Positions 11,157 to 29,970 of a stretch of DNA of 54,554 bases are shown here, piece by piece. Source of the DNA: Myxococcota bacterium (GTDB lineage: Bacteria; Myxococcota_A; Bradymonadia; UBA4248); contig JAZRWH010000137.1 in the NCBI GenBank assembly GCA_045599585.1, positions 1 through 54,554 on the forward strand. Direction: 5' to 3'. Position 1 is the stretch's first letter; each line of letters opens with the position of its first letter. Made by a program: the position numbers and the translations under genes. The notes below the pieces were generated by a model. It saw only the letters and a program-made list of their open reading frames with translations. It was not told where the DNA came from and ran no database searches.

Positions 11157-11170
11157 TTCAATCTAACTTA

Positions 11171-11198
11171 ATCCTCGCGCTTGCGAGGATTTTTTTTT
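11171..11198 (+). terminator. rho-independent terminator after the 8337..11156 gene
   Basis: ATCCTCGCGCttGCGAGGAT followed by T8. Confidence 0.8.
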
Positions 11199-11220
11199 GC
11201 ACAATGCAGTGCAAATCGGG

Positions 11221-11292
11221 GGCGGCGTATTATCGATGCATCGCAGCGATAAAGCCGCACCGCCTTCGCGTATTGGCAAAGCCAATAGCGAA
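11221..11292. repeat. two adjacent core-type hairpins (GCGGCGTAT...ATAAAGCCGC; GCGTATTGGCaaaGCCAATAGCG)
   Basis: Read from the sequence. Lies downstream of the 8337..11156 terminator. Confidence 0.65.
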
Positions 11293-11370
11293 GGCCACAT
11301 CACATCGTCAAAAATTGCTCTACCCCCCTATCCGCACTATACTGAACCGCCGTCTTTTGCGGCATGATGC

Positions 11371-14300
11371 ATGGAGTTTAGCTTGAGCAGGTTGGGGTTA
11401 AAACAAGTATTTACAGCGCTTTTATGGCATTTTTTAATGCTCGTTGCCCCCATTGTGGCCCTTGCAGAGGACGACCCTTGGACCGAAAGAAATAGCGAAC
11501 ATTTTACGATTTATTATCCCGCTAACCGAGCTGCGTTTGCTGAACTGGTCCTAACAAAAGCTGAAAAAGTCTATGAACGACTCTCAGATCTGCTCGACTC
11601 ACAAATGGAAGACCGCGTCGATATTCATATCGAGGTAAAACGAGATGAGGCGCTTCCATGTAACCAAAGCGTGACCGAAACATCCATGATCATCACAGCC
11701 TGGCCTGATCCGGATAAGATTCTTGGACGCGGACAGGGAGATTGGCTCGAACAACAAATTGCCCACAACCTCGCGCACATTCTCACGCTCAATACCTCCA
11801 GCATGTCGGGATTTTTAAAGCAGCTGCTCGGCGTCATCGCACACAACAACCGTTATGCTCCAACATGGTACATGGAAGGTGTCGCTAAATACTTTGAAAC
11901 GCCTGACAACCCTGGACAGAGTATCCGCCAACCAGCCTTTCGCGCGCTCGTTGAAGCCATGGCCAGAGCTGATCTCATTCCATCTCTCGGTCAGCTCAAT
12001 GCTGGAACAAGACACTGGCCAGCAGATCAAAGTAACACGCTCTTCGGAGCGGCTTTCATCGAAAAAATTGCACGCGACTTCGGTGAAGAGATCTTTGGAC
12101 AGTGGAATCTAGAGTATGCACGCGACATGGTGCCGTTTTCTATTCAGAGAACTGCACGCCTCGTTCTCGGAAACAACTGGGACGTTTTTTACGACGCATG
12201 GCGCAAAAAGATCAAACTCATCGCCCAAGAAAGACCTTACACAGATGAAGTTTCATCCCGCATCGTCCTGACAGGAGCCTGGCGCAACGATCGCGTCCGC
12301 GCCGTCCCCAATGCCAACAAAATCAGTTATGTGCGCGACGATGGTCTGCATCCAAGGGCAATTGTTGTCCTCGATCTCGACACTAAAACAGAACAAAGAA
12401 TCACAGAATGTCAGGGATGGTGCGAACATCACTGGTCACAAGATGGAAAACGCGTCTTTTACTCGACGCTCGTGAACGTTGACGACATGGAGCTCATTCA
12501 GCGCGTCTATGTCTATGATCTGGAAAAACACACCAGAAGCAGGATCGCCATCCCCGATCACGTACGCTCATTCACGCTCGATGGAGATCGAATGTGGGCT
12601 GCCGTTATGAAAGACGACATCAATGAACTCTATGAGCTCAATGTCGAAACCGAATTCGCAACGCCCAAAAAACTTCTGCAAACAGAGCCCTTTGAGCGCA
12701 TGGATGGTTTAGACGCTTATCAAAATAGCCTGGTTACCTCCATCTTCGATCCTCATACGAGTGTGGTTCACCTAGAACGTATCGATCTTACCCCAGAAGG
12801 CGCCGTACGCGTTCCGATCTCTCTAAATGACGTGGATCACATCCACCCGATCTGGCTCGATACAGGAAATATCCTCTACATAAGGAGCGACGTTTGGAGC
12901 GAAGAGGTTTGGGTCGTATCCAGGGATGGTAAATACGAAACACGCCTCACGCGTATGGCCGAAGGCGTTTCACACCCTGCAGTCGGAAATGATGGCAGCC
13001 TGCTGTTTACAGAATTTAGTGCCAACGGTTCGTATATCGCAGCCATCCCAGAAAACGAACTAAAAGCTATAACAGAGCCTTGGATCAAAAGTATCCTAGA
13101 GGCTGAACAAGCAGCAGCAATATCCCCTACTGACAACGATAACGCACCTACGACGACAGACTTCTTTATTGAAACGACTAAAAATAACGTCGAAACTGAA
13201 ATCTCTATTTTTATTCATCAAGTCCTAAACTTTATGGACGCTCTCGGAATAACACTTCCCTTACACAATGCAGCCGATTTTTTCATCGAAACTATAATTG
13301 CTGAGAATGATTCTGTGGTTTCTGAAGTGGAGGGTATGGATGTTTCTGAAAACAATCTTTCTTCCGATAAAACATCCGCTTTGTCTGCTGAATCAATGAA
13401 TAGTCTTGATGACAACGAAGACGATGAAGACGAGGACGATGAAGACGAGAGCGATCTTATAAAAGATGATCTCAACTCACTCTTTGATATTTCGCATACT
13501 GCATCCTCTTTGTTTGAAGAAGCGCAACCTTACCAGGTTTGGCGCCAATTGGTGCCAAGTATCTACACGCCTCTGCTAAACTACACAGAAAATAGTGGTG
13601 TTGGTATCGGTTTCCTCATCGGTGGTGAGGACGTTTTAGAGTATCATAAGTACGACATCCATTTTGATTATTATACGGCTATCAATGCTTTTGACACGGC
13701 ATTCAATTACATCTGGACACAATATGCTTGGGACCTTGGTGCCGGTACGGGCATGGACCAACGCACCGTATTGTGGAGCGTCGAAAACGAATACCGCTAT
13801 CTTAATTATGTGACCTATTGGGCAGAGTTATACACGCAACGAGACTGGCATTTCCCCACACTCGACCTTGCTTTAGAGCTCAAATATCGTACAGAATACA
13901 GCCGACCTCTCGATCAAAGCACTTGGAATGCGCATGACAATAATGAAGACCCCGTTCGCTTGCCACAACTCGGTTGGACAAGTGCACTCATGGCAAAACT
14001 TGAATTGAGCAAAAAATACAAAGCAGAACGCACTTTTGTCGATTTTACGGGATTTGCCTTTACGACCTATTTGCGCATTGAAGCACCTTTTCTGGGCGCT
14101 GAAGATTACACCTTTATTAATGAATTTCAGCTCATCACGCGCGTTCCAATGCCCTACCTCGAAACGCACGTCCTCGGCATGACAATTCAAGGCGGCTATG
14201 CATACTCCGAAAACGAAACTCGTCAGCCCTTTGAAATCTTAAGTGCATCCGGCTTTTCGTTTAATGATGATAACGTCCAGCTACACGGCTATCGCCGAGG

Positions 14301-14604
14301 CCTCTTGTTTGGTCAATACGATCTATACACGCAGCTGCAATACACGGCGCTCTTAGCTGAATTTCAAGCGGGCATGACAAACTTCCCACTCGGATTTAAC
14401 CGCTTGGGCGCGGCAGTTCAGTTCGACATGGGTATGGCTTGGACGAAGCGATTACGCCGAAACGATCTGCGTTATTCTGTCGGTGCTGAGGTCTATCTTG
14501 ACGGCATGGTAGCTTATCATCTACCCTTTAGAGTTTCTTACGGCTTCGCACGTGGGCTGGCCGATGAAGGTGAAAGCTATCATTACTTTTTGCTATCGTG
14601 GTAG
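11371..14604 (+). CDS. large envelope protein: signal peptide, TolB/PD40-like beta-propeller region, acidic linker, probable C-terminal beta-barrel
   Basis: A signal peptide is followed by ALA-ED. WSQDGKRVFYS and PAVGNDGSLLFTEFSANGSYIAA are PD40-like blades. There is a DDNEDDEDEDDEDESD acidic run. The C-terminal roughly 500 aa is rich in alternating aromatics and ends in W. Confidence 0.6.
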   Translation: MEFSLSRLGLKQVFTALLWHFLMLVAPIVALAEDDPWTERNSEHFTIYYPANRAAFAELVLTKAEKVYERLSDLLDSQMEDRVDIHIEVKRDEALPCNQSVTETSMIITAWPDPDKILGRGQGDWLEQQIAHNLAHILTLNTSSMSGFLKQLLGVIAHNNRYAPTWYMEGVAKYFETPDNPGQSIRQPAFRALVEAMARADLIPSLGQLNAGTRHWPADQSNTLFGAAFIEKIARDFGEEIFGQWNLEYARDMVPFSIQRTARLVLGNNWDVFYDAWRKKIKLIAQERPYTDEVSSRIVLTGAWRNDRVRAVPNANKISYVRDDGLHPRAIVVLDLDTKTEQRITECQGWCEHHWSQDGKRVFYSTLVNVDDMELIQRVYVYDLEKHTRSRIAIPDHVRSFTLDGDRMWAAVMKDDINELYELNVETEFATPKKLLQTEPFERMDGLDAYQNSLVTSIFDPHTSVVHLERIDLTPEGAVRVPISLNDVDHIHPIWLDTGNILYIRSDVWSEEVWVVSRDGKYETRLTRMAEGVSHPAVGNDGSLLFTEFSANGSYIAAIPENELKAITEPWIKSILEAEQAAAISPTDNDNAPTTTDFFIETTKNNVETEISIFIHQVLNFMDALGITLPLHNAADFFIETIIAENDSVVSEVEGMDVSENNLSSDKTSALSAESMNSLDDNEDDEDEDDEDESDLIKDDLNSLFDISHTASSLFEEAQPYQVWRQLVPSIYTPLLNYTENSGVGIGFLIGGEDVLEYHKYDIHFDYYTAINAFDTAFNYIWTQYAWDLGAGTGMDQRTVLWSVENEYRYLNYVTYWAELYTQRDWHFPTLDLALELKYRTEYSRPLDQSTWNAHDNNEDPVRLPQLGWTSALMAKLELSKKYKAERTFVDFTGFAFTTYLRIEAPFLGAEDYTFINEFQLITRVPMPYLETHVLGMTIQGGYAYSENETRQPFEILSASGFSFNDDNVQLHGYRRGLLFGQYDLYTQLQYTALLAEFQAGMTNFPLGFNRLGAAVQFDMGMAWTKRLRRNDLRYSVGAEVYLDGMVAYHLPFRVSYGFARGLADEGESYHYFLLSW

Positions 14605-14701
14605 CTCTAATGTGTCGCTTTCTCACGCATGTTATTTACAAAACATGCCCGCACCATAAAGACAATTCATAGATCCAACTAATTTTACGGATTAAATATT
14701 A

Positions 14702-16069
14702 ATGTTTCAAAAAAAGTACTTCTTCTTGCATAAGAGCCTCTTGTTGGCCACGCTTACGCTTGAAACAGCTTTTTGTATCAACGCCTGCGAAGTCCACGAT
14801 TACTGGAGTATCCCAGACGCACTCGTTGTCAACGAATCCCAAGACCGTGATGATGCAGAACGATTAGAAACAGACCTTTTCGTCCGCTATCAACTCGATT
14901 ATTCCGTTACCAATACTTCGTCTAATATGACAGAAGTCGTCGTTTCCGGAACTTCCTATGTCAACAATACCGCACGTACGACAGGCATGAAAGTCTGGCG
15001 ACTCAACCCCAAAGAAACGGGTGAAGGCATCCTTACGCCTACCATGCTCGAATATGGCAATGCCCTCCAAGTCTCGCTATTGTGCTGCAATCAAAGCAAG
15101 TGCAAAAGAAACGAAGTCCTTTGCCCCGTTGAAAGCGATACGCCTGAAGGGATTAATGCTGGGTCAAACCATTCCGTTTTTTGCTACCAAGCTTGCCAAG
15201 ACGTCGACCGATGCAACGCCGCATGCCCTGCGCAGTCAGCTTGCGAGTCCTATTGCAAAAAAAATTATCCCGCCAATAAACAAGAACAGTGCATGGAATT
15301 CGATTGCTCTATCTCGGGATTGGTTAACTCTTGCGAACAAATTTGCGATGGTGACGAAGATTGCTTGGAAACTTGTAAACCTGCACTTTCTTGCGCCCAC
15401 GCTTGTTCTTCCTCGGCTGCTGCTTGCTACAAAAACTGTATTTCTACATGGTCCCTTTGCACAGACACAACCTATAGCAGCGATGCAAACATCGTCCCAT
15501 GCTCTCTGTGCGCAAAAGATCTCGAATCGCCCACTGCTTGTCTTTATAATAAAACCCCTCAGTGGAACGAAGGCACGCCCGTCTTTTCGCTTCATAAAGC
15601 AGATAAATCCTCGGACATCGTCTATACGTGCGACAATTCATATAATTGTGATGTTTACCCATCGGTTTGTATAGACGATTGTAATGCTATTTTCTCAAGC
15701 GGTTCAGACGCACTTAGAGCCAAATGTGTCGACAAATGTATCGAACAACACCTGTTTTGGTGTAACGACTTCTATGTTCCAAGCGAATACATCGATTCGA
15801 ATTATGATCAGCCATGTTGCTATGAGGAAGCTTGCACGGCCGAAATGCAAGGCATCATCAAAACCATGGATGTCGAATGCTTTGACGACTCCGCTTGCGG
15901 GAGCAATCACTACTGTAGTCCGGCAGGCGTTTGCACCGAAAACGGTGTCAGCTCCTGTTCCACGCACACCTTACGCAATACGCCCTTTGACCTCCCCTTG
16001 CCGCTCCTCTTATTCTTCGGTGTAATTCCTTGGTACACCTTTAAACGACGCCATGATCGCATCAAATAA
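14702..16069 (+). CDS. cysteine-rich secreted protein with C-terminal TM anchor
   Basis: Signal peptide present. The central region is dense in C-x3-C-x3-C (CYQACQDVDRCNAACPAQSACESYC...). The C-terminal hydrophobic segment PLPLLLFFGVIPWYTF is followed by KRRHDRIK. Confidence 0.7.
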   Translation: MFQKKYFFLHKSLLLATLTLETAFCINACEVHDYWSIPDALVVNESQDRDDAERLETDLFVRYQLDYSVTNTSSNMTEVVVSGTSYVNNTARTTGMKVWRLNPKETGEGILTPTMLEYGNALQVSLLCCNQSKCKRNEVLCPVESDTPEGINAGSNHSVFCYQACQDVDRCNAACPAQSACESYCKKNYPANKQEQCMEFDCSISGLVNSCEQICDGDEDCLETCKPALSCAHACSSSAAACYKNCISTWSLCTDTTYSSDANIVPCSLCAKDLESPTACLYNKTPQWNEGTPVFSLHKADKSSDIVYTCDNSYNCDVYPSVCIDDCNAIFSSGSDALRAKCVDKCIEQHLFWCNDFYVPSEYIDSNYDQPCCYEEACTAEMQGIIKTMDVECFDDSACGSNHYCSPAGVCTENGVSSCSTHTLRNTPFDLPLPLLLFFGVIPWYTFKRRHDRIK

Positions 16070-16120
16070 GCCTCATGCTCGGTTGACACCTTGAATTTCT
16101 TAAACTTGCTTACTTTATAA

Positions 16121-16175
16121 GGGGGGAAGTCTCCCCCTGAGCGCCTATCGCCTACGGCGATACAGCGCTACCCCC
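16121..16175 (-). repeat. REP-like element copy B, inverted orientation, short loop
   Basis: GGGGGAAGTCTCCCCCTGAGCGcCTAT-cgcctacggcg-ATACaGCGCTACCCCC. Confidence 0.85.
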
Positions 16176-16396
16176 TCACGGCTCCACACATGCAACAATC
16201 AGCAACCTTTTTGTCATACCCTAAATAAAGCAATAAAAACTAAGAGTAACCCATTTAAGACTCTTGCTGATTGAAAACATATTCATAATGTAGGTATTTA
16301 TGCTACCATATCGAACTGTGTTCGATGCTGCATGTACCTCACACATGCATCTCCCACAAAACACAACCTTTCTAGCTTTTGTCTGGAGAATTAAAT

Positions 16397-17587
16397 ATGA
16401 ATGTCATCTTTATTTCGCCGCATTTTCCGCGACATTTTTATAATTTTTGCGCACGTCTAAAAGAACGAGGCGTTAACGTTTTGGGAATCGGAGACTGCAA
16501 CTGGCACGCCATTGGATCTGCTTGCCAAAACGCCCTGACTGACTACCGCGAAGTCAACAGCCTCGCTGATTACGACGCCGTTTACCGAGCTGTTGCCAGT
16601 TTAATTTCTCAATACGGACGCATTGATTATATTAACAGCGAAAACGAATATTGGCTTGAACTGGAAGCTCGCTTACGTACTGATTTTAATATTGCTACAG
16701 GCCCACATATCGAAGATATGACCGCAATGAACCGTAAATCGCGGATGAAAGAAGGTTATAAAAATGCTGGCGTCCGTGCTGCAAGATGGACTTTGCCCGA
16801 ATCTGAACAGAATGCGTTGGCCTTTGCTAATAAAGTGGGTTACCCTGTTATTGTAAAACCAGACAAAGGCGTTGGTGCTACCAGCACTTACAAAATACAT
16901 AATGATACTGAGCTCTCTGCATTTTGGGCAAAAAAGCCTCTCGACGTTCCGTTTATCGAAGAGGAATGTGTTCCTGGCCATGTTGAAACGTTTGACGGTA
17001 TTACAGACAGCCGTGGCAACGTCCTTTTTGCAGCCAGTCAGTGTCTCCCCGTCAGCCTTATGGACGCCGTCAATCAAGACAAAGATGTTGTCAGCTATTG
17101 CCAAAATCCACCCGATGACCTCCGCTTAGCCGGAGAAGCCACACTCAAACAATATAAAGCCCAAAATCTCTTCTTCCACTTTGAGTTTTTCAGACTTGAT
17201 GAAGACAAAGATGGCCTTGGCAAAAAAGGTGACATCATAGGTCTGGAAGTCAATATGCGTGCTCCGGGCGGACGCATTCCTGATAAAATGAATTACGCCT
17301 ATGATACAGATGTCTATACGATTTGGGCTGATAGTCTTATCTACGACAAATGCTTCATGAATAGCGCGTTCAAACACTATATCACACACATTGGACGCAA
17401 AAATTCTATTGATTATGCCAACGACCTCAACGCTATCCGAGAAAAATGGGCAAATCATATCATAGAAGAAATGGATGTAGATCCAGCATTAGCAAATGAA
17501 ATGGGCAACCATGCCTACCTCATCCGCGCAGACTCTCTCGAAGAACGTCAGGCGCAAGTTAACTATATTCTACAAAGGAGAATTTAA
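16397..17587 (+). CDS. ATP-grasp domain ligase
   Basis: GGAGA precedes the ATG at 16397; the track ORF begins at an upstream TTG. The fold is ATP-grasp-like (VGYPVIVKPDKGVGATSTYKI ... GLEVNMRAPGG). The stop lies 2 nt before the next start. Confidence 0.7.
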   Translation: MNVIFISPHFPRHFYNFCARLKERGVNVLGIGDCNWHAIGSACQNALTDYREVNSLADYDAVYRAVASLISQYGRIDYINSENEYWLELEARLRTDFNIATGPHIEDMTAMNRKSRMKEGYKNAGVRAARWTLPESEQNALAFANKVGYPVIVKPDKGVGATSTYKIHNDTELSAFWAKKPLDVPFIEEECVPGHVETFDGITDSRGNVLFAASQCLPVSLMDAVNQDKDVVSYCQNPPDDLRLAGEATLKQYKAQNLFFHFEFFRLDEDKDGLGKKGDIIGLEVNMRAPGGRIPDKMNYAYDTDVYTIWADSLIYDKCFMNSAFKHYITHIGRKNSIDYANDLNAIREKWANHIIEEMDVDPALANEMGNHAYLIRADSLEERQAQVNYILQRRI

Positions 17588-17589
17588 TT

Positions 17590-18345
17590 ATGAAAAGAGA
17601 ATGGATTACACACCACAGCGGTTGGCTCAACAGAGATATGAATATCCTCGTTCACGGCCATGCTGGAGTCCCCGTCATTGCAATTCCCTGCCAGGATGGC
17701 ATGTGTGACAACTGGGAAAGCTTCCAGATGCAAGATACACTCGGTGATTATATTGAAAATGGACAGATTCAGGTTTTCTGCGTCGATACAGTCGACCGCG
17801 AAAGTTGGTCTGATACTTTTGGGGACAAAGGTTACCGCGCCTGGGTTCAAGAAGAATATTATCATTATATCGTCGATGAAGCCGTTCCCTTTATTCGCCA
17901 GATTAACGGCAGTAATGCCCTCCCCATCGTCACGGGGTTCAGCCTCGGTGCTACGCACTCTGTCATTCTCTTCTATCGCCGACCTGATCTCTTCAGTGGT
18001 GTTTTGGCACTTTCTGGATGCTATGATGCTCCGCATTTTTGGGACGGCTGGTGCAATGAAACATTGTATAATAACTCGCCTGTACACTTTCTTGCGAACC
18101 TTCCTAATGATCATTATTATATCGATATGTACAATCATCGCAGAAGCGCGATCTGCGTTGGTCAAGGTCGCTGGGAAGCTGAAGGCATTCGTACAAGCGG
18201 TATCCTTAAAGATATCTTTGAACAAAAAGGAATCCATACTTGGGTCGATTTTTGGGGATACGATGTTGACCACGATTGGCCTTGGTGGCGCAAACAGATT
18301 CGTTACTTCATGCCTTGGCTCCTTGAAGGCGTCATAAGGACTTAA
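17590..18345 (+). CDS. esterase-family alpha/beta hydrolase (putative esterase / esterase-D-like)
   Basis: AGGAG SD present. GFSLG is a nucleophile-elbow motif. Size and pattern fit the PF00756-type putative esterases, the family that includes S-formylglutathione hydrolase. It is tightly coupled to its flanking genes. Confidence 0.6.
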   Translation: MKREWITHHSGWLNRDMNILVHGHAGVPVIAIPCQDGMCDNWESFQMQDTLGDYIENGQIQVFCVDTVDRESWSDTFGDKGYRAWVQEEYYHYIVDEAVPFIRQINGSNALPIVTGFSLGATHSVILFYRRPDLFSGVLALSGCYDAPHFWDGWCNETLYNNSPVHFLANLPNDHYYIDMYNHRRSAICVGQGRWEAEGIRTSGILKDIFEQKGIHTWVDFWGYDVDHDWPWWRKQIRYFMPWLLEGVIRT

Positions 18346-18348
18346 TCT

Positions 18349-19620
18349 ATGTTTCACCTCGAAAATGATAAAGTTAAAAGTCTATTATTCAAAGGATGCT
18401 TTGGCCTAGAAAAAGAAAGCCTCCGCGTTACGCCCAAGGGCTTTCTTTCGCATACACCACACCCATTTCCAGCTAATGACCATATCGTTCGCGACTTTTG
18501 TGAAAATCAAACAGAAATCAATACGCCTGTCGCTCCTTCTGCACAAGAAGCCCTTGATGCTTTATTTGATTACACAAAACAAATCCATAGGACGTTAGCT
18601 TCCCTCCCCGACCCCGAACTGCTTTGGCCGTTTTCTAATCCGCCTTTTATTCATAATGAAAATGATATTCCGGTGGCTCAATTCGCTGGTGGATATGCCT
18701 CCAAAACAAGCTATCGCGAGTATCTTTCGGATCGATACGGGCGGTATAAAATGGTTCTCTCTGGTATTCATATCAATTATTCTTTTGATGATGAATTGCT
18801 TCAGGCTGATTTTGAAGTCAGCGGTGAAGAAAATTTCAAAAATTATAAAAATAAATTGTATATGAATCTTGCCGAAAGAGCAGCTTCATACGGTTGGATC
18901 ATGACCGCGCTCACTGCAGCAAGCCCATTGATGGACTCCAGTTACGTCGAAAAAGGCAAACTCGGAGGCACAACGTTCAACGGTATGGCAAGTACTCGAT
19001 GCAGTGAACTTGGATATTGGAATTACTTTACCCCTGTATTTAATTACAATAATATCCAAGATTATGCAGACAGCATTCAGCAATACGTTGAAAACGGACT
19101 GTTAGCCGCACCAACCGAATTGTATTATCCAATTCGCCTAAAACCGCGCGGAAAAAATAGACTTGTAACTTTGCATAACGAGGGCGTCGATCATATTGAG
19201 CTCAGAATGATCGATCTCAATCCGCTTGAACCAGCTGGTTTAAATCTCAAAGATTTGCAGTTTGCACAGCTCCTGCTCATTTGGCTTGCTTGCAAACCGC
19301 CCCACCCACTCACGCAGAAAGATCAGATTCAAGCTGTGCAGAATTTCAAAAATGCTGCTCACTATGATCTCAAAACTGTAAAAATCGTTGTTCCGGGCAG
19401 CCATATTTATTCTGTGGCTGACACGGGACTCATGGTCGTCGATCAAATGAAATTCTTCTTCAGAGATTTCCCCCATGTTCAGGATATTCTCGATTTCCAA
19501 GAAGCTAAATTTATTGATCCCGATAAGCGTTATGCATGGAAAATACGCTCTCAATTTGCTGACAACTTTGTTCAAAAAGGTCTCGAACTCGCTCAAAAGC
19601 GTCAGCAGGAAGTATTATAA
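18349..19620 (+). CDS. glutamate--cysteine ligase (GshA family)
   Basis: GLEKESLRV, YREYLSDRYGRYKMVLSGIHINYSF, YGWIMTALTAASP, YYPIRLKP and IELRMIDLNPLEPAGL line up with E. coli GshA GLERETLRV / [25 protein letters not shown] / FGWVIPYLFGASP / YAPIRPKR / IEVRSLDINPFSPIGV. The stop overlaps the next start (TAATG). Confidence 0.8.
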   Translation: MFHLENDKVKSLLFKGCFGLEKESLRVTPKGFLSHTPHPFPANDHIVRDFCENQTEINTPVAPSAQEALDALFDYTKQIHRTLASLPDPELLWPFSNPPFIHNENDIPVAQFAGGYASKTSYREYLSDRYGRYKMVLSGIHINYSFDDELLQADFEVSGEENFKNYKNKLYMNLAERAASYGWIMTALTAASPLMDSSYVEKGKLGGTTFNGMASTRCSELGYWNYFTPVFNYNNIQDYADSIQQYVENGLLAAPTELYYPIRLKPRGKNRLVTLHNEGVDHIELRMIDLNPLEPAGLNLKDLQFAQLLLIWLACKPPHPLTQKDQIQAVQNFKNAAHYDLKTVKIVVPGSHIYSVADTGLMVVDQMKFFFRDFPHVQDILDFQEAKFIDPDKRYAWKIRSQFADNFVQKGLELAQKRQQEVL

Positions 19621-20393
19621 TGTGTGAATTATTTGCTATTTCAAGTTCAGTCGACGTTCAGATTAATAATCTGCTTAAGACTTTCTTTTCTCATAGTGAT
19701 AAAAACCCTGACGGCTGGGGATTAGCCGTGTTTTATGGTAACTCCGTTAGTCTCGAAAAAGAACCTGCCTGCGCTAATCGAAGCCAATACTTAAAGGCTA
19801 GACTGCGTTCGAAAATTGAAATTCATAATATGGTTGCTCATATTCGCAGAGCCACCCGAGGCAATATGGATTATGAAAATTGTCATCCATTTATCATGCG
19901 TGACTGTGATGACCGCGCTTGGACACTGATTCATAATGGAACCATATTCGACTCGCCCCGCTTAAATCGATATGTCAATATTCAAACGGGCATGACTGAT
20001 AGTGAACGCATTTTGTATTATATTATTGATCGCGTAAATGCCCGTAGAGTCGAACTTGGACGCGCCCTAAATCTAGACGAACGATTCGCTCTTCTCGACG
20101 AAATTGTATGCCAAATTGCTCCCCATAACAAAATTAATCTCATTATATATGATGGAGAAGTGTTTTATGTGCATACAAATTACAAAGACACGCTCTTTAT
20201 TCGTCAAGAAATGAATACCGCGTTTTTTGCTACGACTCCACTCGATGATCGCCTCTGGCTTCCTCTGCCTTTTACGACCCTGCTCGCCTATAAAGATGGA
20301 CGTCACATTCTGACGGGTACATGCCACGGACACGAATATATAGATGATCCCTCTGATACAAAATTCCTCTACCTCGATTACCTCGAGTGTTAG
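19620..20393 (+). CDS. class-II glutamine amidotransferase-like Ntn hydrolase (YafJ/EgtC/Dug3 type)
   Basis: Starts MCELFAISS with the catalytic Cys2 typical of class-II GATase. The ATG overlaps the upstream stop. Confidence 0.75.
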   Translation: MCELFAISSSVDVQINNLLKTFFSHSDKNPDGWGLAVFYGNSVSLEKEPACANRSQYLKARLRSKIEIHNMVAHIRRATRGNMDYENCHPFIMRDCDDRAWTLIHNGTIFDSPRLNRYVNIQTGMTDSERILYYIIDRVNARRVELGRALNLDERFALLDEIVCQIAPHNKINLIIYDGEVFYVHTNYKDTLFIRQEMNTAFFATTPLDDRLWLPLPFTTLLAYKDGRHILTGTCHGHEYIDDPSDTKFLYLDYLEC

Positions 20394-20624
20394 AGCTTAT
20401 ATGATTAAAACGCGGGTTTCTACAGAAATCCCGCGTTACAACACGATCTGCCCCCACTTGAGACCAAATGAGGATGACTTATTAACTTACATCTATATTG
20501 AATGAATTTCGTTGCAGTCAGTGAGTATTTTTTGTGAGATAGCAATGAAATGATATATAATCAATACGCTCATTGTGAGCGCTTTATTTGTATTGCTTTG
20601 CTACACCTGACTCGGTTTTGAAGC

Positions 20625-21377
20625 ATGAACGAAAGTATCATCGACATTTTACAAGCCTATAAAAATAATACACTCTCGCTTGAGGAAGCCGCAAAACGCA
20701 TTCGCGCAGCAGAAGCGATTGACTTGGGATTTGCAAATATTGATCTTCAACGCAAAGCACGCCGTGGCGCTTCAGAAGTCATTTTTGGGGCATCCAAAAC
20801 CCCAGAGCAAATCATTAAAATTGCGCAAACACTCGCTGATCACGATCAATCCCCCATTCTTATTACGCGCTTAAAACCAGATTCTGCCGATATTGTAAGT
20901 CGAACACTCAAAATCCAATACGATCCCATTTCACAAACGGCTATCGTCGGAGCATTTCCTACTCCAGATGGATTGGGCAAAATTGCAGTTGTTACAGCTG
21001 GTACAAGCGATATCCCCGTTGCTGAAGAAGCTGCAATTACTGCGCAATTTTTAGGAAACCATGTAGATAGAATTTATGATGTCGGTGTCGCGGGAATTCA
21101 TAGACTGCTCTCGCGTGTTGATCAATTGAGAGAGGCTCGCGTTGTTATTGCTATCGCTGGCATGGAAGGCGCGTTAGCAAGTGTCGTTGCAGGGCTCGTT
21201 GAATCTCCCGTAATCGCAGTTCCAACGAGTATTGGATACGGTGCAGCGTTTAACGGACTTGCAGCCCTACTTTCGATGATTAATGCATGTGCGACGGGCA
21301 TTAGTGTCGTGAATATTGATAATGGCTTTGGCGCTGCTTTCGTTGCCAGTAAAATTAATCACATCAAGCCTGTCTAA
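20625..21377 (+). CDS. larB: LarB-like nickel-pincer cofactor biosynthesis carboxylase (PurE fold)
   Basis: The C-terminal PurE-like domain is KIAVVTAGTSDIPVAEEAAI...VIAIAGMEGALASVVAGL...PVIAVPTS, with a roughly 100-aa N-terminal extension. It lies adjacent to larC. Confidence 0.8.
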   Translation: MNESIIDILQAYKNNTLSLEEAAKRIRAAEAIDLGFANIDLQRKARRGASEVIFGASKTPEQIIKIAQTLADHDQSPILITRLKPDSADIVSRTLKIQYDPISQTAIVGAFPTPDGLGKIAVVTAGTSDIPVAEEAAITAQFLGNHVDRIYDVGVAGIHRLLSRVDQLREARVVIAIAGMEGALASVVAGLVESPVIAVPTSIGYGAAFNGLAALLSMINACATGISVVNIDNGFGAAFVASKINHIKPV

Positions 21378-21489
21378 CACTTATAGTGAGCATAGAAGAA
21401 AAACAATGAGCATCTGCACATGTACCATCATAAGAAAATGAACCTGAACTAGAGCCCCAAACATACGCTCTCTGAAGAACCGTGTAACG

Positions 21490-21690
21490 CGTCGCTTCCG
21501 CTTGTCGTTGAGCATCAGTTACTTTAATTTATCGATATATAATCGCTTCTAAACAAAAAAAGACTTAAGATTACTATAAATTGCACGCGTAGCGAAGGCG
21601 AAGGCAAGCAGCGGGAGCACCGGACGCGCATGTTGAAGACAAAGTCAAGTTCGCGCCCGCCGATGAGCTTTTCATTTGTTGAGAGCGTTT
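21490..21690 (+). mobile_element. MITE-like element copy 3, degenerate (about 80% over 120+ bp, no recognisable TIRs)
   Basis: ...TTATCGATATATAaTCGcTTCTAAaCAaaAAAAGACTTAAGATTACTaTaAATtGC...GCGAAGGCGAAGGCAAGCAGCGGGaGCACCgGACG aligns to copies 1 and 2. Confidence 0.55.
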
Positions 21691-21777
21691 GAATACAGGT
21701 CCGGTAAATATTCGTGCGGTTGTTTTGATTCCATGCTAAAACTTAACCTTGGGTGGACTTTTAAAGCACCCCAAGAT

Positions 21778-21803
21778 TGATTGAAAATAATTCATCAATC
21801 AAC
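21778..21803. promoter_or_regulatory. inverted repeat TTGATTGA-n10-TCAATCAA in the larB-larC spacer; candidate operator
   Basis: Seen in the sequence, about 200 nt upstream of the larC start. Confidence 0.3.
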
Positions 21804-22002
21804 AAATTAATACTGTTTTTCACAAAATTAAACCATAATTTTGCAAAAACCATGAACAGTATCGACACATCCCCCAATAAAAATCGCATCATTACATGTT
21901 ATATCTGATGTTTTGTATCAGACTTATTATTACAATTTGCAAAATATTCTAGGGCTTTATTTGCGAATTTTACCTAACAAACCCTAGTGGAGTTTGATCG
22001 AA

Positions 22003-23480
22003 TGGAAACACTTTATTTTGACTGTCAAATGGGAGCAGCTGGCGACATGATCACAGCAGCACTTTTGGATCTCTTTGATAACCCCGAAGCTGTGATCTGC
22101 GAGCTAAATCAAATTGGCCTGCCAGGTGTCGAATTCAGTCACTCCAAAGTCGAAAAATCCGGTATTTCGGGCATGCAAGTAACCATTAAGGTCAATGGCA
22201 TCGAAGAAATCTGCGAAGATGTCAAAGCACATTATGAGCATCATGCCCACGCGCACCACCATTGCCACGCGCACAACGAACACGAACATTGCCATGAACA
22301 TGAGCATTGCCACGAACACGAACATTGCCACGTACATGGGCATTGTCACGAACATGAGCATTGCCACGAACATCAGCATTGCCACGAACATGGGCATTGT
22401 CACGAACATGAGCATTGTCACGAACATGAGCATTGCCACGAACATGAACATTGCCACGAACATCAGCATTGCCACGAACATGGGCATTGTCACGAACATG
22501 GGCATTGTCACGAACATGGGCATTCACATGAACATCACCACGCTACGATGAACGAAATCTATGCAATCGTTGATGCACTCAATATCGACGATTCTGTGAA
22601 AGCAAATGTACGTGCTGTTTATGAAATCATCGCAGAAGCCGAGAGCCACGCTCATGGTGTTCCTGTCACAGAAGTACATTTTCACGAAGTCGGAACGATG
22701 GATGCGATTGCCGATATTACGGCCGTTTGTTTATTAATTCACAAGCTTAACCCCAAACAGATATTGTGTTCGCCGATTCATGTCGGAAGTGGCCATGTTC
22801 ACTGCGCACACGGCATTCTTCCGGTGCCAGCGCCTGCTACGGCCTTCATTTTACGTGGCATTCCTGCGTACGGCGGAGAGGTCAATGGCGAATTGTGTAC
22901 ACCGACGGGAGCGGCAATTGCTAAACATTTTGCAAACAAATTCTGCTACATGCCCATGATGAACACCAAACGCGTAGGCTACGGCATGGGCAAAAAGACT
23001 TTTGAACGTCCTAATTGTGTACGCGCATTTTTAGGAAATACAGAAGATAATTCTGAAATCATCTGCGAGTTAAGCTGTAATCTTGATGATATGTCAGCAG
23101 AAGCGATGGGATTTGCGCAAGAGCGTCTTATGGAAGAAGGGGCTTTGGATGTATTTTCCACAGCAATTGTTATGAAAAAATCGAGACCCGGCTATATGCT
23201 GACGATTCTTTGTAACACGAGTGATCGAGAACACATCCTCAAAACCATCTTTGCGCATACCACGACGATCGGCGTTCGAGAAAAACTATGCCAACGATAT
23301 GTTTTAGCACGAGAGATACAAACGGTTTCGCTGCCGGAAGGGGAGGTTCGGATTAAAAGATCAACGGGGTACGGCGTTGAACGATCTAAAGCGGAATATG
23401 AAGATTTAGCTCGTATTGCAAAAGAGCGAGGCGTTTCGCTGAAAAGTATCGAAGAAGAAGTCATGAAAAAGAGATCGTAA
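22003..23480 (+). CDS. larC: LarC nickel insertion protein (DUF111 family) with expanded His/Cys-rich repeat
   Basis: METLYFDCQMGAAGDMITAALLDLF matches the LarC N-terminus; the track ORF starts at GTG 21987. There is an internal (HEHEHC)n metal-binding repeat. The C-terminal CTP-binding LarC2-like portion is present. Confidence 0.85.
22255..22545 (+). repeat. about 15 tandem 18-bp units (CACGAACATGAGCATTGC and variants) encoding (HEHEHC)n inside larC
   Basis: Period-18 direct repeats are visible. Translation is HCHEHEHCHEHEHC... The antisense ORFs at 22104..22523 and 22222..22527 are artefacts of this repeat. Confidence 0.9.
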
Positions 23481-24519: not shown

Positions 24520-24924
24520 AACTTAACTCCATAAATCGTAAGGCCCACAGAATGTTTGCGAACGCTTGCCCAGAGCAGCGCACAAACCGCACAAGCCTAA
24601 AACCTATCAACTAAAACAATCTCCGTCTGACACAGTGTCAAACAACAGAACAATGGGCTTGTAAACGTTTAGGACAAAATTTAAAATAATAAAATTGAGT
24701 ATTTGAACGCAAACGACACTTCGCTCGATTCGGAGAGACGGTCCGTATAAAACTGATCAAAAAAGTGGCATACGAAGCGTGAAAAGATAAAAAAAATCCC
24801 AAATATCTTGGGGAATGTCATAAAGAGCAAAAGCTGTTTTGGCTTAAGCCGGTCAGACGGCTAGAAGCATAAGTAAAAAGATCTGACCTTAACGTCAGCA
24901 ACTTTGATAAACGAGGAGAATTCC

Positions 24925-26460
24925 ATGACGTGGACGAGACGTGATTTTATGGCGGCAGGCGCAATGGCCGCCGGCGCCGCAGCGTTTGCCGGATGCGCCG
25001 CATCAAAGAAGGAGACTGCAGTGAGTCCTGTACAAAATTCAGCGAGACCATCATATTTTGAGTCAAGATTCGGAGTTACATCCGAAATGACAAACAAGGT
25101 CTTATCGCGCGCTTTAGCACACGGTGGTCAATGGGGAGAGCTTTATTTTGAGCACTCGCGCAACGTTTCTTTGCTGCTGAAAGACAGCATTGTTTCGCAA
25201 GCCTACACTGGCATATCGCTGGGCATGGGTGTCCGCACAGTCGTCGACGATCAGGTGGGGTATGCCTTCACTGAATCACTGATGCTAAACGACATGCTGG
25301 CTGCGGCAGATGCAGCGGCTGCGATTGCCCAAGGCGCAGACGCAGGCGTTGTTAAACCTCAGCATTGGCTCGATATCCAAAAAATCTGGTACGACCAGCA
25401 GGCAAACTGGGATGCCGTCGACATTGCGGAAGCTGCAGCCCTACTTCGCAGTATTGAAGCCAAAGCACGCGCCAAATCCAACGAAATTACAAAAGTCCAG
25501 GTGAGTCTTAACTGGAATCAGCGCAATATCTTTGTCACATCAAGCGACGGCACAAACGCTGAAGATTCGCAACCTTACGCCAATCTTCGTGTGACGCTCG
25601 TCATGGATCGCGGTGGAGAACTCCAGTCCAACTCCGATTCGATCGCGATCATGGGCAGTTTTGCAACCTACAACGATGCACGCATCGAAACGATGCTCAA
25701 TGATCTGGTTCGCGACACTGCAATTCTGTTCGACGCTGTCAAACCTAAAGGTGGCGACTGGCCTGTTGTGTTGGGTGCCGGAGCAAGCGGTATCCTGCTC
25801 CACGAAGCCATTGGGCATGGTCTTGAAGCCGACTTCAACCGCAAAGAAGTCAGTATCTACGCAGACAAGATGAACAAAAAAGTCGCCGAAGCAAACGTTA
25901 CTGTCGTCGACAGCGGCGAAAACGAAGGCTCCCGCGGCGCCCTAAACGTTGATGACGAAGGTACGCTTTCTCAAAAAACGGTTCTCATCGACAAGGGTAT
26001 CCTACGTAGCTACATGCATGACAAAATTAGCGCTAAACATTACGGCGTTGCACCGACTGGCAGTGGTCGACGTGAATCCTACAAAAACAACCCTATTCCA
26101 CGTATGCGCACAACCTATATGGAAAATGGTGATGCTAGCTTTGAAGATCTCATCAAAGACGTCAAATACGGTATCTACTGCACGCGTTACACAAACGGTC
26201 AGGTTTTAATTGGTGCTGGTGACTATACCTTTTATGTTAAAAATGGCTTCCTAATCGAAGACGGCAAATTGACTGCTCCTATTAAAGACGTCAATATCAT
26301 CGGCAACGGTCCCGATACACTTTCGAAGATCACGCGCGTTGCCAACGACTTCGCATACAGCTGCAGCGGATGGACATGCGGTAAAGATGGTCAAAGTATG
26401 CCCGTATCGCTCGGTATGCCCTCTGTTCTCGTTTCTTCGATCAGTGTTGGAGGTAATTAA
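24925..26460 (+). CDS. tldD: TldD (peptidase U62 / metalloprotease) with Tat signal and lipobox
   Basis: MTWTRRDFMAAGAMAAGAAAFAGC carries a twin-arginine motif (TRRDFM) and a lipobox-like AGC. TldD family motifs include HEAIGHGLEAD. GAGGAG SD. The track start at 24904 is an alternative. Confidence 0.9.
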   Translation: MTWTRRDFMAAGAMAAGAAAFAGCAASKKETAVSPVQNSARPSYFESRFGVTSEMTNKVLSRALAHGGQWGELYFEHSRNVSLLLKDSIVSQAYTGISLGMGVRTVVDDQVGYAFTESLMLNDMLAAADAAAAIAQGADAGVVKPQHWLDIQKIWYDQQANWDAVDIAEAAALLRSIEAKARAKSNEITKVQVSLNWNQRNIFVTSSDGTNAEDSQPYANLRVTLVMDRGGELQSNSDSIAIMGSFATYNDARIETMLNDLVRDTAILFDAVKPKGGDWPVVLGAGASGILLHEAIGHGLEADFNRKEVSIYADKMNKKVAEANVTVVDSGENEGSRGALNVDDEGTLSQKTVLIDKGILRSYMHDKISAKHYGVAPTGSGRRESYKNNPIPRMRTTYMENGDASFEDLIKDVKYGIYCTRYTNGQVLIGAGDYTFYVKNGFLIEDGKLTAPIKDVNIIGNGPDTLSKITRVANDFAYSCSGWTCGKDGQSMPVSLGMPSVLVSSISVGGN

Positions 26461-26462
26461 CC

Positions 26463-27791
26463 ATGTCTCAGGATATGAAAAATATCGTTCAAAAAGCACT
26501 CGAATGTGCAAAAAAATACGGCGCTCAGGATGCATTCGCCAGCGTTGCTCACGGTCAATCGGTCGATATCACTTGGCGCAAAAAGAAAGTCGAAAACATG
26601 GCGAGTTCTGGTACCTCGGCGTTGGCAATCGACCTCTATGTTGATGGACGCTACAGTACGCATTCGACCTCTGATCTTCGCGATGAGTCTATCGAAGCTT
26701 TTATTAAGCGCGGTGTCGAAGTTACACGTCTCTTGGAACCCGATGAATTCAGAGCACTTCCCGACCCTGCAAAATACGAAGGCCGAACGAATGCAGACCT
26801 GCAAACAGTAGATCCGGCTGTCGAAAATATGACGCCCGATGACCTCATCGCCATGACCAAAGAACTCGAAGATGCCGCACTCGCGCACAGCGATGCTCCC
26901 ATTCAGGATGTTTCGACCGGCGCTTCCTACGAAAAAAGCGATTACTTTTCTGCATCAAGCAATGGTTTTTCGGGTGAACGCAGTTCCACAGCTGTTTCAA
27001 ATTATACTGAGATCGTTCTTAAATCGCCTGATGGCAAAGTACCCTCCGACTATGCCTTCTCCACAGGGCATCACAAATCAGATCTTCTCTCGTCCCAATC
27101 TATTTCGGACGAAGCACTCAAACGTGCGCTTACGTGCCTGAATCAGAAAAAACTCCCCACCAAATCGCGCACGGCACTTTTTGACAATCGTGCAGCTGTC
27201 ACGCTGATGAATCACTATCTAGGCCCGATTGTTGGCGCTTCTATCGACCAAAAACAATCCTATTTTCTTGATAAAATTGGTCAAAAATGCGGCTCTGATC
27301 TATTGACGCTCGTCGACATGCCGCACATTCCCGGCGGTCCGGCTTCACGCGCTTACGATTCTGAAGGCATGGCGACCCATGACCGTACGATTTTTGAAAA
27401 TGGTTCTCTCAAACAATATAATTTGAGCAACTATTACGCGCGCAAACTCAATCTTGAAGTCACGAGCAGCGCTTTTACAAATCTCGTTATGCCTGGTTCC
27501 AAAGATGGCAAGTCGCTTGATGAACTTATTAAATCCATTCAAGACGGCATCCTCATTACAGGCTTCCTGGGCGGAAACAAAGACGCTGTCCGTGGCGATT
27601 TCTCGTACGGTATCGTTGGCATCGCCATCGAAAATGGCGAACTTACAACGCCTATTTCCGAAATGAATATTAACGGGAACTTTAATACATTCTGGAATAA
27701 TTTGTCCGCACTTGGCAATAATCCCTATTTGTATAGCAAACTTATGATTCCTTCTCTACGCATTGATGACGTCGTCCTTTCTGGAACGTAA
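26463..27791 (+). CDS. pmbA: PmbA/TldE (peptidase U62 partner subunit), no signal peptide
   Basis: Begins 2 nt after the tldD stop. PmbA-like length, with the C-terminal GGN...G motifs. The N-terminus MSQDMKNIVQKALE is hydrophilic. Confidence 0.85.
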   Translation: MSQDMKNIVQKALECAKKYGAQDAFASVAHGQSVDITWRKKKVENMASSGTSALAIDLYVDGRYSTHSTSDLRDESIEAFIKRGVEVTRLLEPDEFRALPDPAKYEGRTNADLQTVDPAVENMTPDDLIAMTKELEDAALAHSDAPIQDVSTGASYEKSDYFSASSNGFSGERSSTAVSNYTEIVLKSPDGKVPSDYAFSTGHHKSDLLSSQSISDEALKRALTCLNQKKLPTKSRTALFDNRAAVTLMNHYLGPIVGASIDQKQSYFLDKIGQKCGSDLLTLVDMPHIPGGPASRAYDSEGMATHDRTIFENGSLKQYNLSNYYARKLNLEVTSSAFTNLVMPGSKDGKSLDELIKSIQDGILITGFLGGNKDAVRGDFSYGIVGIAIENGELTTPISEMNINGNFNTFWNNLSALGNNPYLYSKLMIPSLRIDDVVLSGT

Positions 27792-29433: not shown

Positions 29434-29970
29434 ATGCAAAGTGAATCATCCATGAAAGCACCCATCGAAAAATACTGCGCATTCTGTGGACGTCCCTTCG
29501 ATCATCCAAATTCTGGATGGCCCAAATCGTGCCAATGCGGTGAAATCACCTACCGCAATCCGTTGCCTGTTGTAAATGTTATCGTTCCAGTCTTAGATGA
29601 AGAAAGAAGAGGCGTCCTTCTGATTCAACGCGGCATAGAACCTTGTCGCGAAGGCTGGGCATTGCCAGGCGGTTTTTTGGAACTCGGCGAAACTTGGCAA
29701 GAAGGCTCTGCTCGAGAGCTCAAAGAAGAAACCGGACTTATTGTAGATCCTGCCAAGATTACGCTCGTGGGCGTCGAAATGAATCCTAAGCGCAATCGCG
29801 TTCTAATATTCGCACAAACAGAAACCTTTAAACGCGAAGCCTTACCACCGATCGCGCGCAACGAAGAAGTCCTAGGCGATCGTATTCTGTTTGAGCCCGA
29901 AACACTCGCTTTTCCACCACACACCACAGTGATCGCTGATTATTTAAAACAACCGAACATATCCAAATAA
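29434..29970 (+). CDS. NUDIX hydrolase with N-terminal zinc ribbon (NudC-like architecture)
   Basis: CAFCG...CQCG forms a Cys4 ribbon. The Nudix box is GGFLELGETWQEGSARELKEETGL. Confidence 0.8.
   Translation: MQSESSMKAPIEKYCAFCGRPFDHPNSGWPKSCQCGEITYRNPLPVVNVIVPVLDEERRGVLLIQRGIEPCREGWALPGGFLELGETWQEGSARELKEETGLIVDPAKITLVGVEMNPKRNRVLIFAQTETFKREALPPIARNEEVLGDRILFEPETLAFPPHTTVIADYLKQPNISK

Follow-up and report, generated by a model that had tools for sequence, protein, structure and literature searches.

In the EgtA/EgtC/EgtE pathway of ergothioneine formation, γ-glutamyl-cysteine (γ-Glu-Cys) is the sulfur donor, its glutamate is trimmed by an N-terminal-nucleophile (Ntn) amidohydrolase and a pyridoxal-phosphate (PLP) C-S lyase acts last. 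A ligase and a hydrolase acting on one and the same amide bond, with the conjugate as a transient, are also found in the pairs PuuA/PuuD, IpuC/IpuF, TdnQ/TdnT and glutathionylspermidine synthetase/amidase. Yeast Dug2-Dug3 and plant GGP1 are cytoplasmic enzymes of the glutamine amidotransferase (GATase) type that hydrolytically split glutathione or its conjugates at the γ-glutamyl bond; according to two reports, they recover cysteine and are induced by sulfur limitation (PMC9804317, PMC12653102). A split GshF, consisting of adjacent stand-alone γ-glutamylcysteine synthetase (γ-GCS) and glutathione synthetase (GS) of broad specificity, is reported for Clostridium acetobutylicum (Kino 2007, cited in PMC2940859). 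In Staphylococcus aureus, the genes hmrA and ldmS for an M20D peptidase and an L-Asp-L-Met ligase are co-transcribed under CymR, CodY or S-box control, and the authors note the paradox that the LdmS ligase consumes a sulfur amino acid and yet is induced when the latter is scarce (PMC9486568). Here we describe a four-gene block that shares features with these systems. It occupies positions 16397-20393 of contig JAZRWH010000137.1 (assembly GCA_045599585.1) from a Myxococcota bacterium; the window analysed is the whole contig stretch of 54,554 nucleotides. The block encodes an ATP-grasp ligase (ORF1, AGR), a hydrolase of the PF00756 family (ORF2, EstA), a glutamate-cysteine ligase (ORF3, GCL) and an Ntn amidohydrolase (ORF4, GAT4) (Table 1). 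We tentatively read it, with a probability of roughly 0.4, as a sulfur-amino-acid module that handles cysteine in the form of γ-Glu-Cys.

The list of open reading frames (ORFs) and direct reading of the sequence place all four genes on the forward strand in one tightly packed block. ORF1 and ORF2 are 2 nt apart (TAA-tt-ATG, 17585-17592), ORF2 and ORF3 are 3 nt apart (TAA-tct-ATG, 18343-18351), and the stop codon of ORF3 overlaps the start of ORF4 (TAATG, 19618-19622). Each of the three junction starts is preceded by a Shine-Dalgarno (SD) sequence (AAGGAG, AAGGA or AGGAAG) located inside the preceding gene. An earlier note on this DNA had deduced a single translationally coupled operon from these junctions and had assigned ATP-grasp, esterase, GshA and class-II amidotransferase domains to its products; the junctions and SD sequences bear out the former and Pfam agrees with the latter for all four proteins. 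The ORF1 frame opens at 16379 or 16397. It is the ATG at 16397 that carries an SD sequence (GGAGA), and ORF1 homologues begin with MNVIFISP, the same start as that obtained from this codon. No riboswitch or leader was found at the Rfam gathering threshold in the intergenic region upstream of ORF1, and a sigma-70 scan listed no convincing match immediately upstream of this gene. The hairpin 3' of the ORF4 stop codon is a possible end of the operon; it has no T-run and was not called by the forward-strand terminator scan. The gap between the block and the next gene, larB, is 230 nt. An antisense ORF of 257 aa (17584-18357, reverse strand) exactly shadows the esterase gene, and such shadows also lie opposite GCL, GAT4 and AGR, 'conserved' from locus to locus; all of them were treated as non-coding.

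ORF3 matches the Pfam family Glu_cys_ligase (PF04262) with 214 bits against a cut-off of 27, and its PDB matches include GshF (3ln7, E 1.2e-46) and Escherichia coli GshA (1v4g, E 1e-31), the N-terminal half of GshF being the closest. Judged by the NCBI equivalog cut-offs, it represents a subfamily distinct from both GshA and GshF, with scores of 281 bits for NF002688 (full-length cut-off 425), 154 bits for TIGR01434 (393.3) and 195 bits for TIGR01435 (656). Residues were mapped by a profile alignment of the 18-sequence family to 1v4g. The equivalents of E27, E29, E67, H150, R235, E328 and R330, which we take to be the metal, ATP and glutamate residues of E. coli GshA, are all kept and family-invariant. 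The same applies to Y131, R132, Y241 and Y300, presumably the residues of the cysteine site, and the equivalent of R304 is conserved as well; the sole exception is Q144, which is replaced by a family-invariant methionine (Met135). The active site is intact and synthesis of γ-Glu-Cys is predicted. The GshA motifs on which the GshA-type assignment had first been based are present, and the catalytic equivalents are kept.

ORF4 begins with MCELF and belongs to GATase_4 (PF13230, 122.6 bits); its best PDB match is 1te5 (E 4.9e-15), and EgtC (4zfj) is matched at E 1.5e-4. The MCE start recurs in 59 of 62 orthologues and C2 in 61, and R76, T79, N106, G107 and D127 are found in all 62. The protein therefore keeps the Cys2 nucleophile and the Arg/Asn-Gly/Asp γ-glutamyl-binding set of the YafJ-type family, in line with its initial description as a Cys2 Ntn hydrolase of the YafJ/EgtC kind. 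An ergothioneine cluster was considered and rejected: ORF4 scores 52 bits with the EgtC model TIGR03442, far below the cut-off of 218.65, and both EgtB-like and EgtD-like genes are absent from the window and from 79 related loci. The likeness to the EgtA/EgtC logic resides in the combination of GCL and GAT4, joined by a PatB-type C-S lyase in 22 related loci. However, ORF3 is of the GshA type, whereas EgtA is of the GCS2 type, albeit a GCS2-type (EgtA-type) ligase co-occurs in one related locus (L086). Furthermore, the EgtB sulfoxide synthase and the EgtD methyltransferase are absent here, an ATP-grasp ligase and an esterase are present, and the hosts are anaerobes, in which the O2-dependent chemistry of EgtB is impossible. 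The role proposed for GAT4 is similar to that of Dug2-Dug3 and GGP1, but Dug3 requires Dug2, GGP1 is a class-I GATase and neither is operon-coupled to a bond-making ligase.

The Pfam match of ORF1 is CPSase_L_D2 (ATP-grasp; 25 bits against a cut-off of 19.8), its top PDB sequence match is the L-amino acid ligase 4wd3 (E 2.6e-8), and its NCBIfam matches, with low scores, are biotin carboxylases, Ddl, PurK and LysX. The AlphaFold2 (AF2) model is confident (mean predicted local distance difference test score, pLDDT, of 91). RizA (E 7.8e-25; template modelling score, TM, 0.73), YwfE/BacD and BL00235 make up the top five Foldseek matches, and biotin carboxylases, PurK and PurT rank behind these L-amino-acid ligases (LALs). 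K154, E188-E190, E284-x-N286 and R288 are invariant in the family alignment, and the Mg/ATP residues of the ATP-grasp fold are intact. By its nearest sequence and fold neighbours ORF1 is of the LAL type, and it might form α-peptide bonds between free L-amino acids; since identity to known LALs is just 13–19% in the Foldseek alignments, its substrates cannot be inferred. With RizA, YwfE/BacD and BL00235 as its nearest relatives, the suggestion that ORF1 is a diverged GshB or GshF C-terminal domain does not hold. GshB and the GshF structures 3ln6/3ln7 are absent from both its PDB sequence matches (E <= 0.1) and its top 50 Foldseek matches, and the same is true of LdmS (7R8P/7R8Q). As in the split γ-GCS and GS pair, a stand-alone protein resembling the N-terminal part of GshF shares an operon with an ATP-grasp gene, the esterase gene standing between the two in the window. 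However, the ATP-grasp partner is here LAL-type and optional, whereas the C-terminal part of GshF is of the D-Ala-D-Ala-ligase type, and it is the γ-glutamyl hydrolase that is the main partner of the ligase, with an esterase added.

ORF2 matches the Pfam family Esterase (PF00756) with 57.8 bits, and no N-terminal signal-like sequence was seen in its translation. Its confident AF2 model (pLDDT 92) resembles Ag85C acyltransferases, S-formylglutathione hydrolases (SFGHs) and feruloyl esterases about equally (TM ~0.7 at ~15% identity), so that the fold containing SFGH, to which it had originally been ascribed, is also the one returned by Foldseek. The family alignment displays an invariant S118 within GxSxG, an invariant H228 and the motif PC34QDGMC39DNWE; of the catalytic triad, the serine and histidine are located and the acid residue is not identified with confidence. 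NCBIfam matches at E <= 0.01 are limited to enterochelin esterase (17 bits) and PHA depolymerase (16 bits), the SFGH model not being among them. Apart from the fold, nothing supports an assignment of ORF2 as SFGH/esterase D: the likeness to FrmB/SFGH structures (TM 0.65–0.75) is equalled by that to Ag85 acyltransferases, and identity to SFGH structures is ~13–15%.

In order to find out how widespread the module is, one genome per species was scanned with ORF3 (tblastn, E <= 1e-3). At least 564 species genomes encode a relative, the best 80 being 58–72% identical. The carriers are mostly gut and rumen assemblies of Lachnospiraceae and Oscillospiraceae (Clostridia), with Faecalibacterium, Gemmiger, Blautia, Fusicatenibacter, Coprococcus and Ruminococcus among the genera; the others are assemblies of Myxococcota, 'Alphaproteobacteria/Proteobacteria', Spirochaetales and Erysipelotrichaceae. 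Far from being unexpected in an anaerobe, as had been supposed, the module is typical of strict anaerobes from gut and rumen. All four genes recur in the window's order, at 57–84% protein identity, in Myxococcota, 'Alphaproteobacteria/Proteobacteria' and Clostridia assemblies, and the arrangement is therefore not a matter of chance. Three of these loci come from Myxococcota (L005, L011 and L013) and one from a goat-omasum 'Proteobacteria' assembly (L014), with identities of 65–84%, and the source of the window is therefore probably a gut-associated relative within this group; on a JGI metagenome contig (L085) the ATP-grasp protein and the esterase are 91% and 97% identical to those of the window, respectively. 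ORF3 is about as similar to its Clostridia relatives (up to 72–74% identity) as to those from Myxococcota (69–71%) and the flanks are not shared, which argues that the block has moved horizontally as a unit. The neighbourhood survey suggested in the earlier note hence finds the block conserved as a unit across phyla, although AGR and the esterase are optional in relatives. A canonical gshA-gshB pair with unrelated neighbours was rejected, as ORF1 does not resemble GshB and the same four genes keep company in different phyla.

The modular structure became apparent when all ORFs of the 79 loci were clustered and shadow-ORF clusters discarded. Forty-nine loci have at least 3 kb on both sides of GCL and are referred to as complete. 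In 40 of them, no more than 7 kb separates GAT4 from GCL; when all loci are counted, GAT4 is close by in the sense that it follows GCL on the same strand in 53, with a modal overlap of 8 nt. AGR is present in 31 complete loci (23 of which also have a PF00756 esterase) and missing from the remaining 18. The conserved core is the GCL/GAT4 couple, and the AGR/Est couple is a frequent accessory. AGR proteins form two subclades: in one (62–82% identical to ORF1) EstA comes after AGR, as in the window, and in the other (~55% identical) EstB comes before it. EstB is also a PF00756 protein but is not recognisably similar to EstA (BLASTP E 0.5). A natural in-frame AGR-EstA fusion of 642 aa (P0225; L086, 106-2034) is followed by GCL and GAT4, and the opposite strand of the same locus (including 4141-5511) carries a GCS2 (PF04107) ligase, a PatB-like and a Cys_Met_Meta_PP gene beside GCL-GAT4. 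X460, a ligase-like protein of 460 aa distantly related to GCS2 and plant-type GCL, occurs in 5 of the 49 complete loci; it was rejected as a simple substitute for the ATP-grasp ligase, since L086 carries both.

In Clostridia the recurrent neighbours of the module belong to cysteine and methionine metabolism and its regulation and to amino acid transport (Table 1). A further methionine link is provided by locus L090 (1301-10738), in which the order is GCL-AGR-Est, GAT4 is absent, an M20 peptidase gene is divergent, and metF, for methylenetetrahydrofolate reductase (MTHFR), and the B12-dependent metH lie downstream. A T-box leader was identified in 5 of 27 scanned loci, with Rfam scores of 102–118 bits against a gathering score of 93. 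Behind the leader stands a tightly packed operon of 6–7 genes, (SDF)-MetI-PatB-EstB-AGR-GCL-GAT4, followed in four of the five loci by the ATP-binding cassette (ABC) transporter. All five leaders have covarying stems, a specifier loop GAA-N-AUG-G and an antiterminator bulge UGGU. The standard specifier-plus-purine rule indicates that these Oscillospiraceae T-boxes are methionine-specific and fit tRNA-Met; the UGGU bulge would presumably fit an A73 discriminator. Reading the specifier as CAU, UAU or UGG was rejected, because only AUG followed by G is invariant and the bulge fits A73. Taken together, the genomic context favours a role of the module in the economy of sulfur amino acids over one in the synthesis of a redox cofactor.

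This wiring recalls the hmrA/ldmS operon of S. aureus, with an LAL-type ATP-grasp enzyme next to a hydrolase, a methionine T-box or a CymR-like Rrf2 regulator in control, and the same paradox. However, ORF1 is not an orthologue of LdmS, and the two systems resemble each other only in operon logic and regulation. An α/β-fold esterase takes the place of the M20D peptidase (even though L090 has an M20 peptidase beside GCL-AGR-Est), and a GshA-type ligase and an Ntn hydrolase are added. Public labels of the homologues are restricted to 'hypothetical', 'carbamoylphosphate synthase large subunit', 'biotin carboxylase family' and 'alpha/beta hydrolase'. The literature searched contains no description of the gene set, of its distribution in gut anaerobes or of its methionine T-box/CymR-like wiring, which agrees with the earlier note, where the four-gene arrangement was not recognised as a described pathway. 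The four enzyme families and the ligase/hydrolase 'handle' logic are already known.

From the observed gene structure, folds, intact active sites, conservation, modularity and clostridial context, we infer what the module acts on, in which order its steps proceed and what purpose it serves, as follows. ORF3 would use ATP to link glutamate, through its γ-carboxyl group, to cysteine or a very close analogue at the amino group. ORF4, through its N-terminal cysteine, would later strip the γ-glutamyl group from γ-Glu-Cys itself or from a compound derived from it, and this group would thereby serve as a temporary protecting or trapping handle, much as in EgtA/EgtC, and would not be kept in the final product. 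Co-translation of GCL and GAT4 makes it more likely that they catalyse steps of the same pathway than that they oppose each other; given in addition that their active sites are intact, γ-glutamylation of cysteine followed by removal of glutamate would be the simplest mechanism. ORF1 and ORF2 would constitute a second ligase/hydrolase couple acting on the same pool, in which ORF1 forms an acyl-phosphate that it then couples to a nucleophile such as an amine, and ORF2, as a serine hydrolase or acyltransferase, cleaves or transfers the product. The couple might either extend γ-Glu-Cys at the cysteine carboxylate or work alongside it with a second sulfur amino acid as substrate, in the manner of LdmS/HmrA in S. 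aureus. As to the purpose, the γ-replacement and β-lyase enzymes co-transcribed with the module might receive from it a sulfur nucleophile that is N-blocked (transsulfuration), or the module might buffer or trap cysteine when this is scarce or toxic.

Several points weigh against this proposal. No PLP enzyme, transporter, riboswitch or Rrf2 gene is found near the module in the window or in the Myxococcota/Alphaproteobacteria loci; as the four genes of the window stand alone, the link to cysteine and methionine is one transferred from Clostridia. Even there, the T-box is confined to a single Oscillospiraceae lineage, that of the five positive loci among the 27 scanned. AGR and, separately, Est homologues are found alone (L088, L089), and GCL occurs without GAT4 in some loci (L072, L090). 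A ligase accompanied by a hydrolase that undoes its work would run a futile ATP cycle unless an intermediate step or regulation intervenes, and none was identified. Finally, ORF2 belongs to a family of esterases and acyltransferases and not of peptidases, with which a simple model of a dipeptide made and then cleaved fits poorly.

The earlier note had suggested a glutathione-like thiol. Spelled out as a thiol cofactor, ORF3 would make γ-Glu-Cys, ORF1, as a non-homologous replacement of glutathione synthetase, would add a third residue to give γ-Glu-Cys-Xaa, ORF2 would be a thioesterase of thiol-dependent detoxification comparable to S-formyl- or S-lactoyl-glutathione hydrolase, and ORF4 would recover cysteine by turnover, like Dug3/GGP1. 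In favour of such a pathway, the closest relative of ORF3 is the N-terminal half of GshF (281 bits with NF002688; 3ln7 at E 1.2e-46), and the SFGHs among the best structural matches of ORF2, together with the invariant cysteine motif near the start of the EstA fold, point the same way. The four genes are moreover self-contained, which fits their stand-alone state in the window. Precedents are the split GshF reported for C. acetobutylicum (cited in PMC2940859) and glutathione production reported for one member of the Lachnospiraceae whose genome gave no canonical gshA/gshB (PMC13445673). On the other hand, ORF1 has no detectable similarity to GshB or to the GshF C-terminal domain, its neighbours being L-amino-acid ligases. 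The second ligase is dispensable, as seen from the 18 of 49 complete loci that lack AGR, while the most tightly linked gene encodes a hydrolase that would destroy the product. ORF2 has no SFGH match in NCBIfam at the threshold given above, and no glutaredoxin, thiol reductase, S-transferase or glyoxalase recurs in the 79 neighbourhoods. Control by a methionine T-box and a CymR-like regulator would also be unusual for a redox buffer. With the optional second ligase and the Cys/Met neighbours and regulators speaking against it, we consider a thiol cofactor rather unlikely, yet still a live rival to the handling of cysteine as γ-Glu-Cys.

Three other explanations are less likely. Pairs of a ligase and a γ-glutamyl hydrolase are an established hallmark of salvage or catabolic pathways of the Puu, Ipu and Tdn kind, and ORF3 might accordingly γ-glutamylate an imported S-substituted cysteine, homocysteine or another non-cysteine amine, to be modified by ORF1/ORF2 and released by ORF4. 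Frequent neighbours do indeed include transporters and C-S lyases with cysteine S-conjugates as substrates, and the acceptor pocket departs from GshA/GshF at one position (Q144, invariantly methionine); but the other cysteine-site residues of GshA (Y131, R132, Y241 and Y300) are all kept, and no oxidoreductase or other typical modifying enzyme is recurrent. The known pathways, including that of glutathionylspermidine, differ in their amines, which are unrelated to cysteine, and in their enzymes, which are glutamine-synthetase-type ligases and class-I GATase-type or CHAP amidases rather than GshA-type and Ntn-type ones. Salvage of this kind appears improbable. That ORF4 is a true glutaminase subunit, feeding ammonia or glutamate to ORF3 or ORF1 for synthesis of an amide, would agree with its full class-II GATase glutamine site and with the overlap between its gene and the ligase stop codon, which is often seen for amidotransferase subunits. 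Nevertheless, the characterised stand-alone GATase_4 proteins (EgtC and Dug3) are γ-glutamyl hydrolases, known class-II amidotransferases have this domain fused to the synthase, no GCL-GAT4 fusion was found among the homologues listed, and ammonia acting on γ-glutamyl phosphate would just remake glutamine, all of which makes a glutaminase very unlikely. We attach hardly any weight to an antimetabolite cluster in the style of bacilysin, rhizocticin or tabtoxin, in which an LAL makes a 'Trojan-horse' dipeptide, γ-glutamylation confers self-protection and hydrolysis activates the compound. RizA and BacD are the nearest structural relatives of ORF1, and the horizontal exchange between phyla (~70% identity to Clostridia and Myxococcota alike) would suit such a cluster. 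However, the module is highly conserved in at least 564 species, has neither a warhead-forming enzyme nor an exporter, and is embedded in primary Cys/Met operons under T-box control.

Within the sulfur-amino-acid reading a more specific scheme can be drawn, although we regard it as a long shot: the module and the MetI- and PatB-type enzymes under the methionine T-box might give gut anaerobes a so far unknown way of turning cysteine into homocysteine and methionine. With neither MetA/MetX nor CoA, the ATP-grasp/α/β-hydrolase couple would activate an acceptor, homoserine or another, by way of an ester derived from an acyl-phosphate; γ-Glu-Cys from ORF3 would be the sulfur nucleophile for the γ-replacement enzyme; ORF4 would remove glutamate and the PatB lyase would cleave the C-S bond. 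If true, this would amount to an 'ergothioneine-style' transsulfuration, dependent on γ-Glu-Cys and independent of MetA. The physiology of gut anaerobes, and the way in which these bacteria affect their host, depends centrally on the supply of cysteine and methionine, on thiol buffering and on sulfide production. The chemistry of the module would show whether strict anaerobes make γ-Glu-Cys-based thiols, could explain the paradox of a ligase in a starvation regulon, as posed by LdmS of S. aureus, and might reveal a γ-glutamyl-protected sulfur transfer.

Table 1. Positions of the operon and other features in the window, and positions or frequencies of features in related loci.
Feature	Position or occurrence	Strand	Basis or remark
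Upstream intergenic region	16070..16396	+	327-nt gap after preceding ORF; SD GGAGA at 16385-16389
ORF1 (AGR), ATP-grasp ligase of L-amino-acid-ligase type, 396 aa	16397..17587	+	Pfam, PDB, Foldseek
ORF2 (EstA), PF00756 serine hydrolase/acyltransferase-fold protein, 251 aa, predicted cytoplasmic	17590..18345	+	Pfam, AF2/Foldseek
ORF3 (GCL), GshA/GshF-N-domain-type glutamate-cysteine ligase, 423 aa	18349..19620	+	Pfam, PDB, alignment
ORF4 (GAT4), stand-alone class-II (Ntn) amidohydrolase, YafJ/EgtC type, 257 aa	19620..20393	+	Pfam, PDB, orthologues
Hairpin AACGCGGG-13 nt-CCCGCGTT, 3' of ORF4 stop	20409..20437	+	Sequence reading
T-box leader, L023	3360-3600		Rfam
T-box leader, L002	120-358		Rfam
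T-box leader, L029	4484-4725		Rfam
T-box leader, L028	3371-3611		Rfam
T-box leader, L030	3366-3606		Rfam
Cys_Met_Meta_PP enzyme (best models MccB/MetI type)	27 loci		Clostridia neighbour
PatB-family C-S lyase	22 loci		Clostridia neighbour; TIGR04350, 463 bits, above cut-off
Polar-amino-acid ABC transporter, ATPase component	19 loci		Clostridia neighbour
Rrf2 regulator, best model CymR	16 loci		Clostridia neighbour; below cut-off
cysK	9 loci		Clostridia neighbour; above cut-off
SDF symporter	6 loci		Clostridia neighbour
tRNA gene	13-84	-	Rfam, 58.9 bits
uvrB	6016-8112		
Three consecutive large ORFs (939, 1077 and 455 aa)	8337-16069	+	Essentially without Pfam match
larB (AIRC domain), next gene after the block	20625-21377		
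larB-larC gap, 609 bp	21378-21986		No ORF >44 aa, no Rfam match
LarC gene (Ni_insertion, PF01969)	21987-23480		
18-bp tandem repeat in LarC gene, 14.4 copies	22276-22535		
TldD/PmbA metallopeptidase pair	24904-27791		
M20 peptidase	28087-29328		
NUDIX hydrolase	29434-29970		

Some further genes accompany the module in related loci. HMA-DsbD-like (9 loci) and FtrD-like iron-sulfur (7 loci) membrane proteins are encoded beside it, usually divergently; the pair is found in L023, L024, L030, L058, L063, L065, L075 and others and may be linked to the reduction of disulfides or cystine. In L087 (1-11816), AGR-Est-GCL-GAT4 is preceded on one strand by genes for HydE (553 bits), for a polar-amino-acid ABC transporter, for a Cys_Met_Meta_PP enzyme and for a GDSL lipase, and after the module come a TcdA-like gene and a TtcA-like tRNA-thiolation gene. 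A 'ThiF' neighbour was considered as a sulfur-carrier E1 and rejected: its best match is the tRNA ct6A synthase TcdA, the TtcA-like gene is next to it in L087, and it is probably unrelated to the module.

The tRNA gene and uvrB, both of them ordinary markers of a chromosome, indicate that the window is part of one and not a mobile element. By analogy with L090, where an M20 peptidase gene adjoins GCL-AGR-Est, the M20 enzyme of the window could be a distant functional partner of the block; the genes for the TldD/PmbA pair and the NUDIX hydrolase lie on either side of it. The three large ORFs that precede the block may encode secreted or surface proteins, the last of them (455 aa) being very cysteine-rich with a hydrophobic segment at its end. 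In the LarC gene, which follows larB on the other side of the block, the tandem repeat encodes a long tract rich in His, Glu and Cys (HEHEHC-like).

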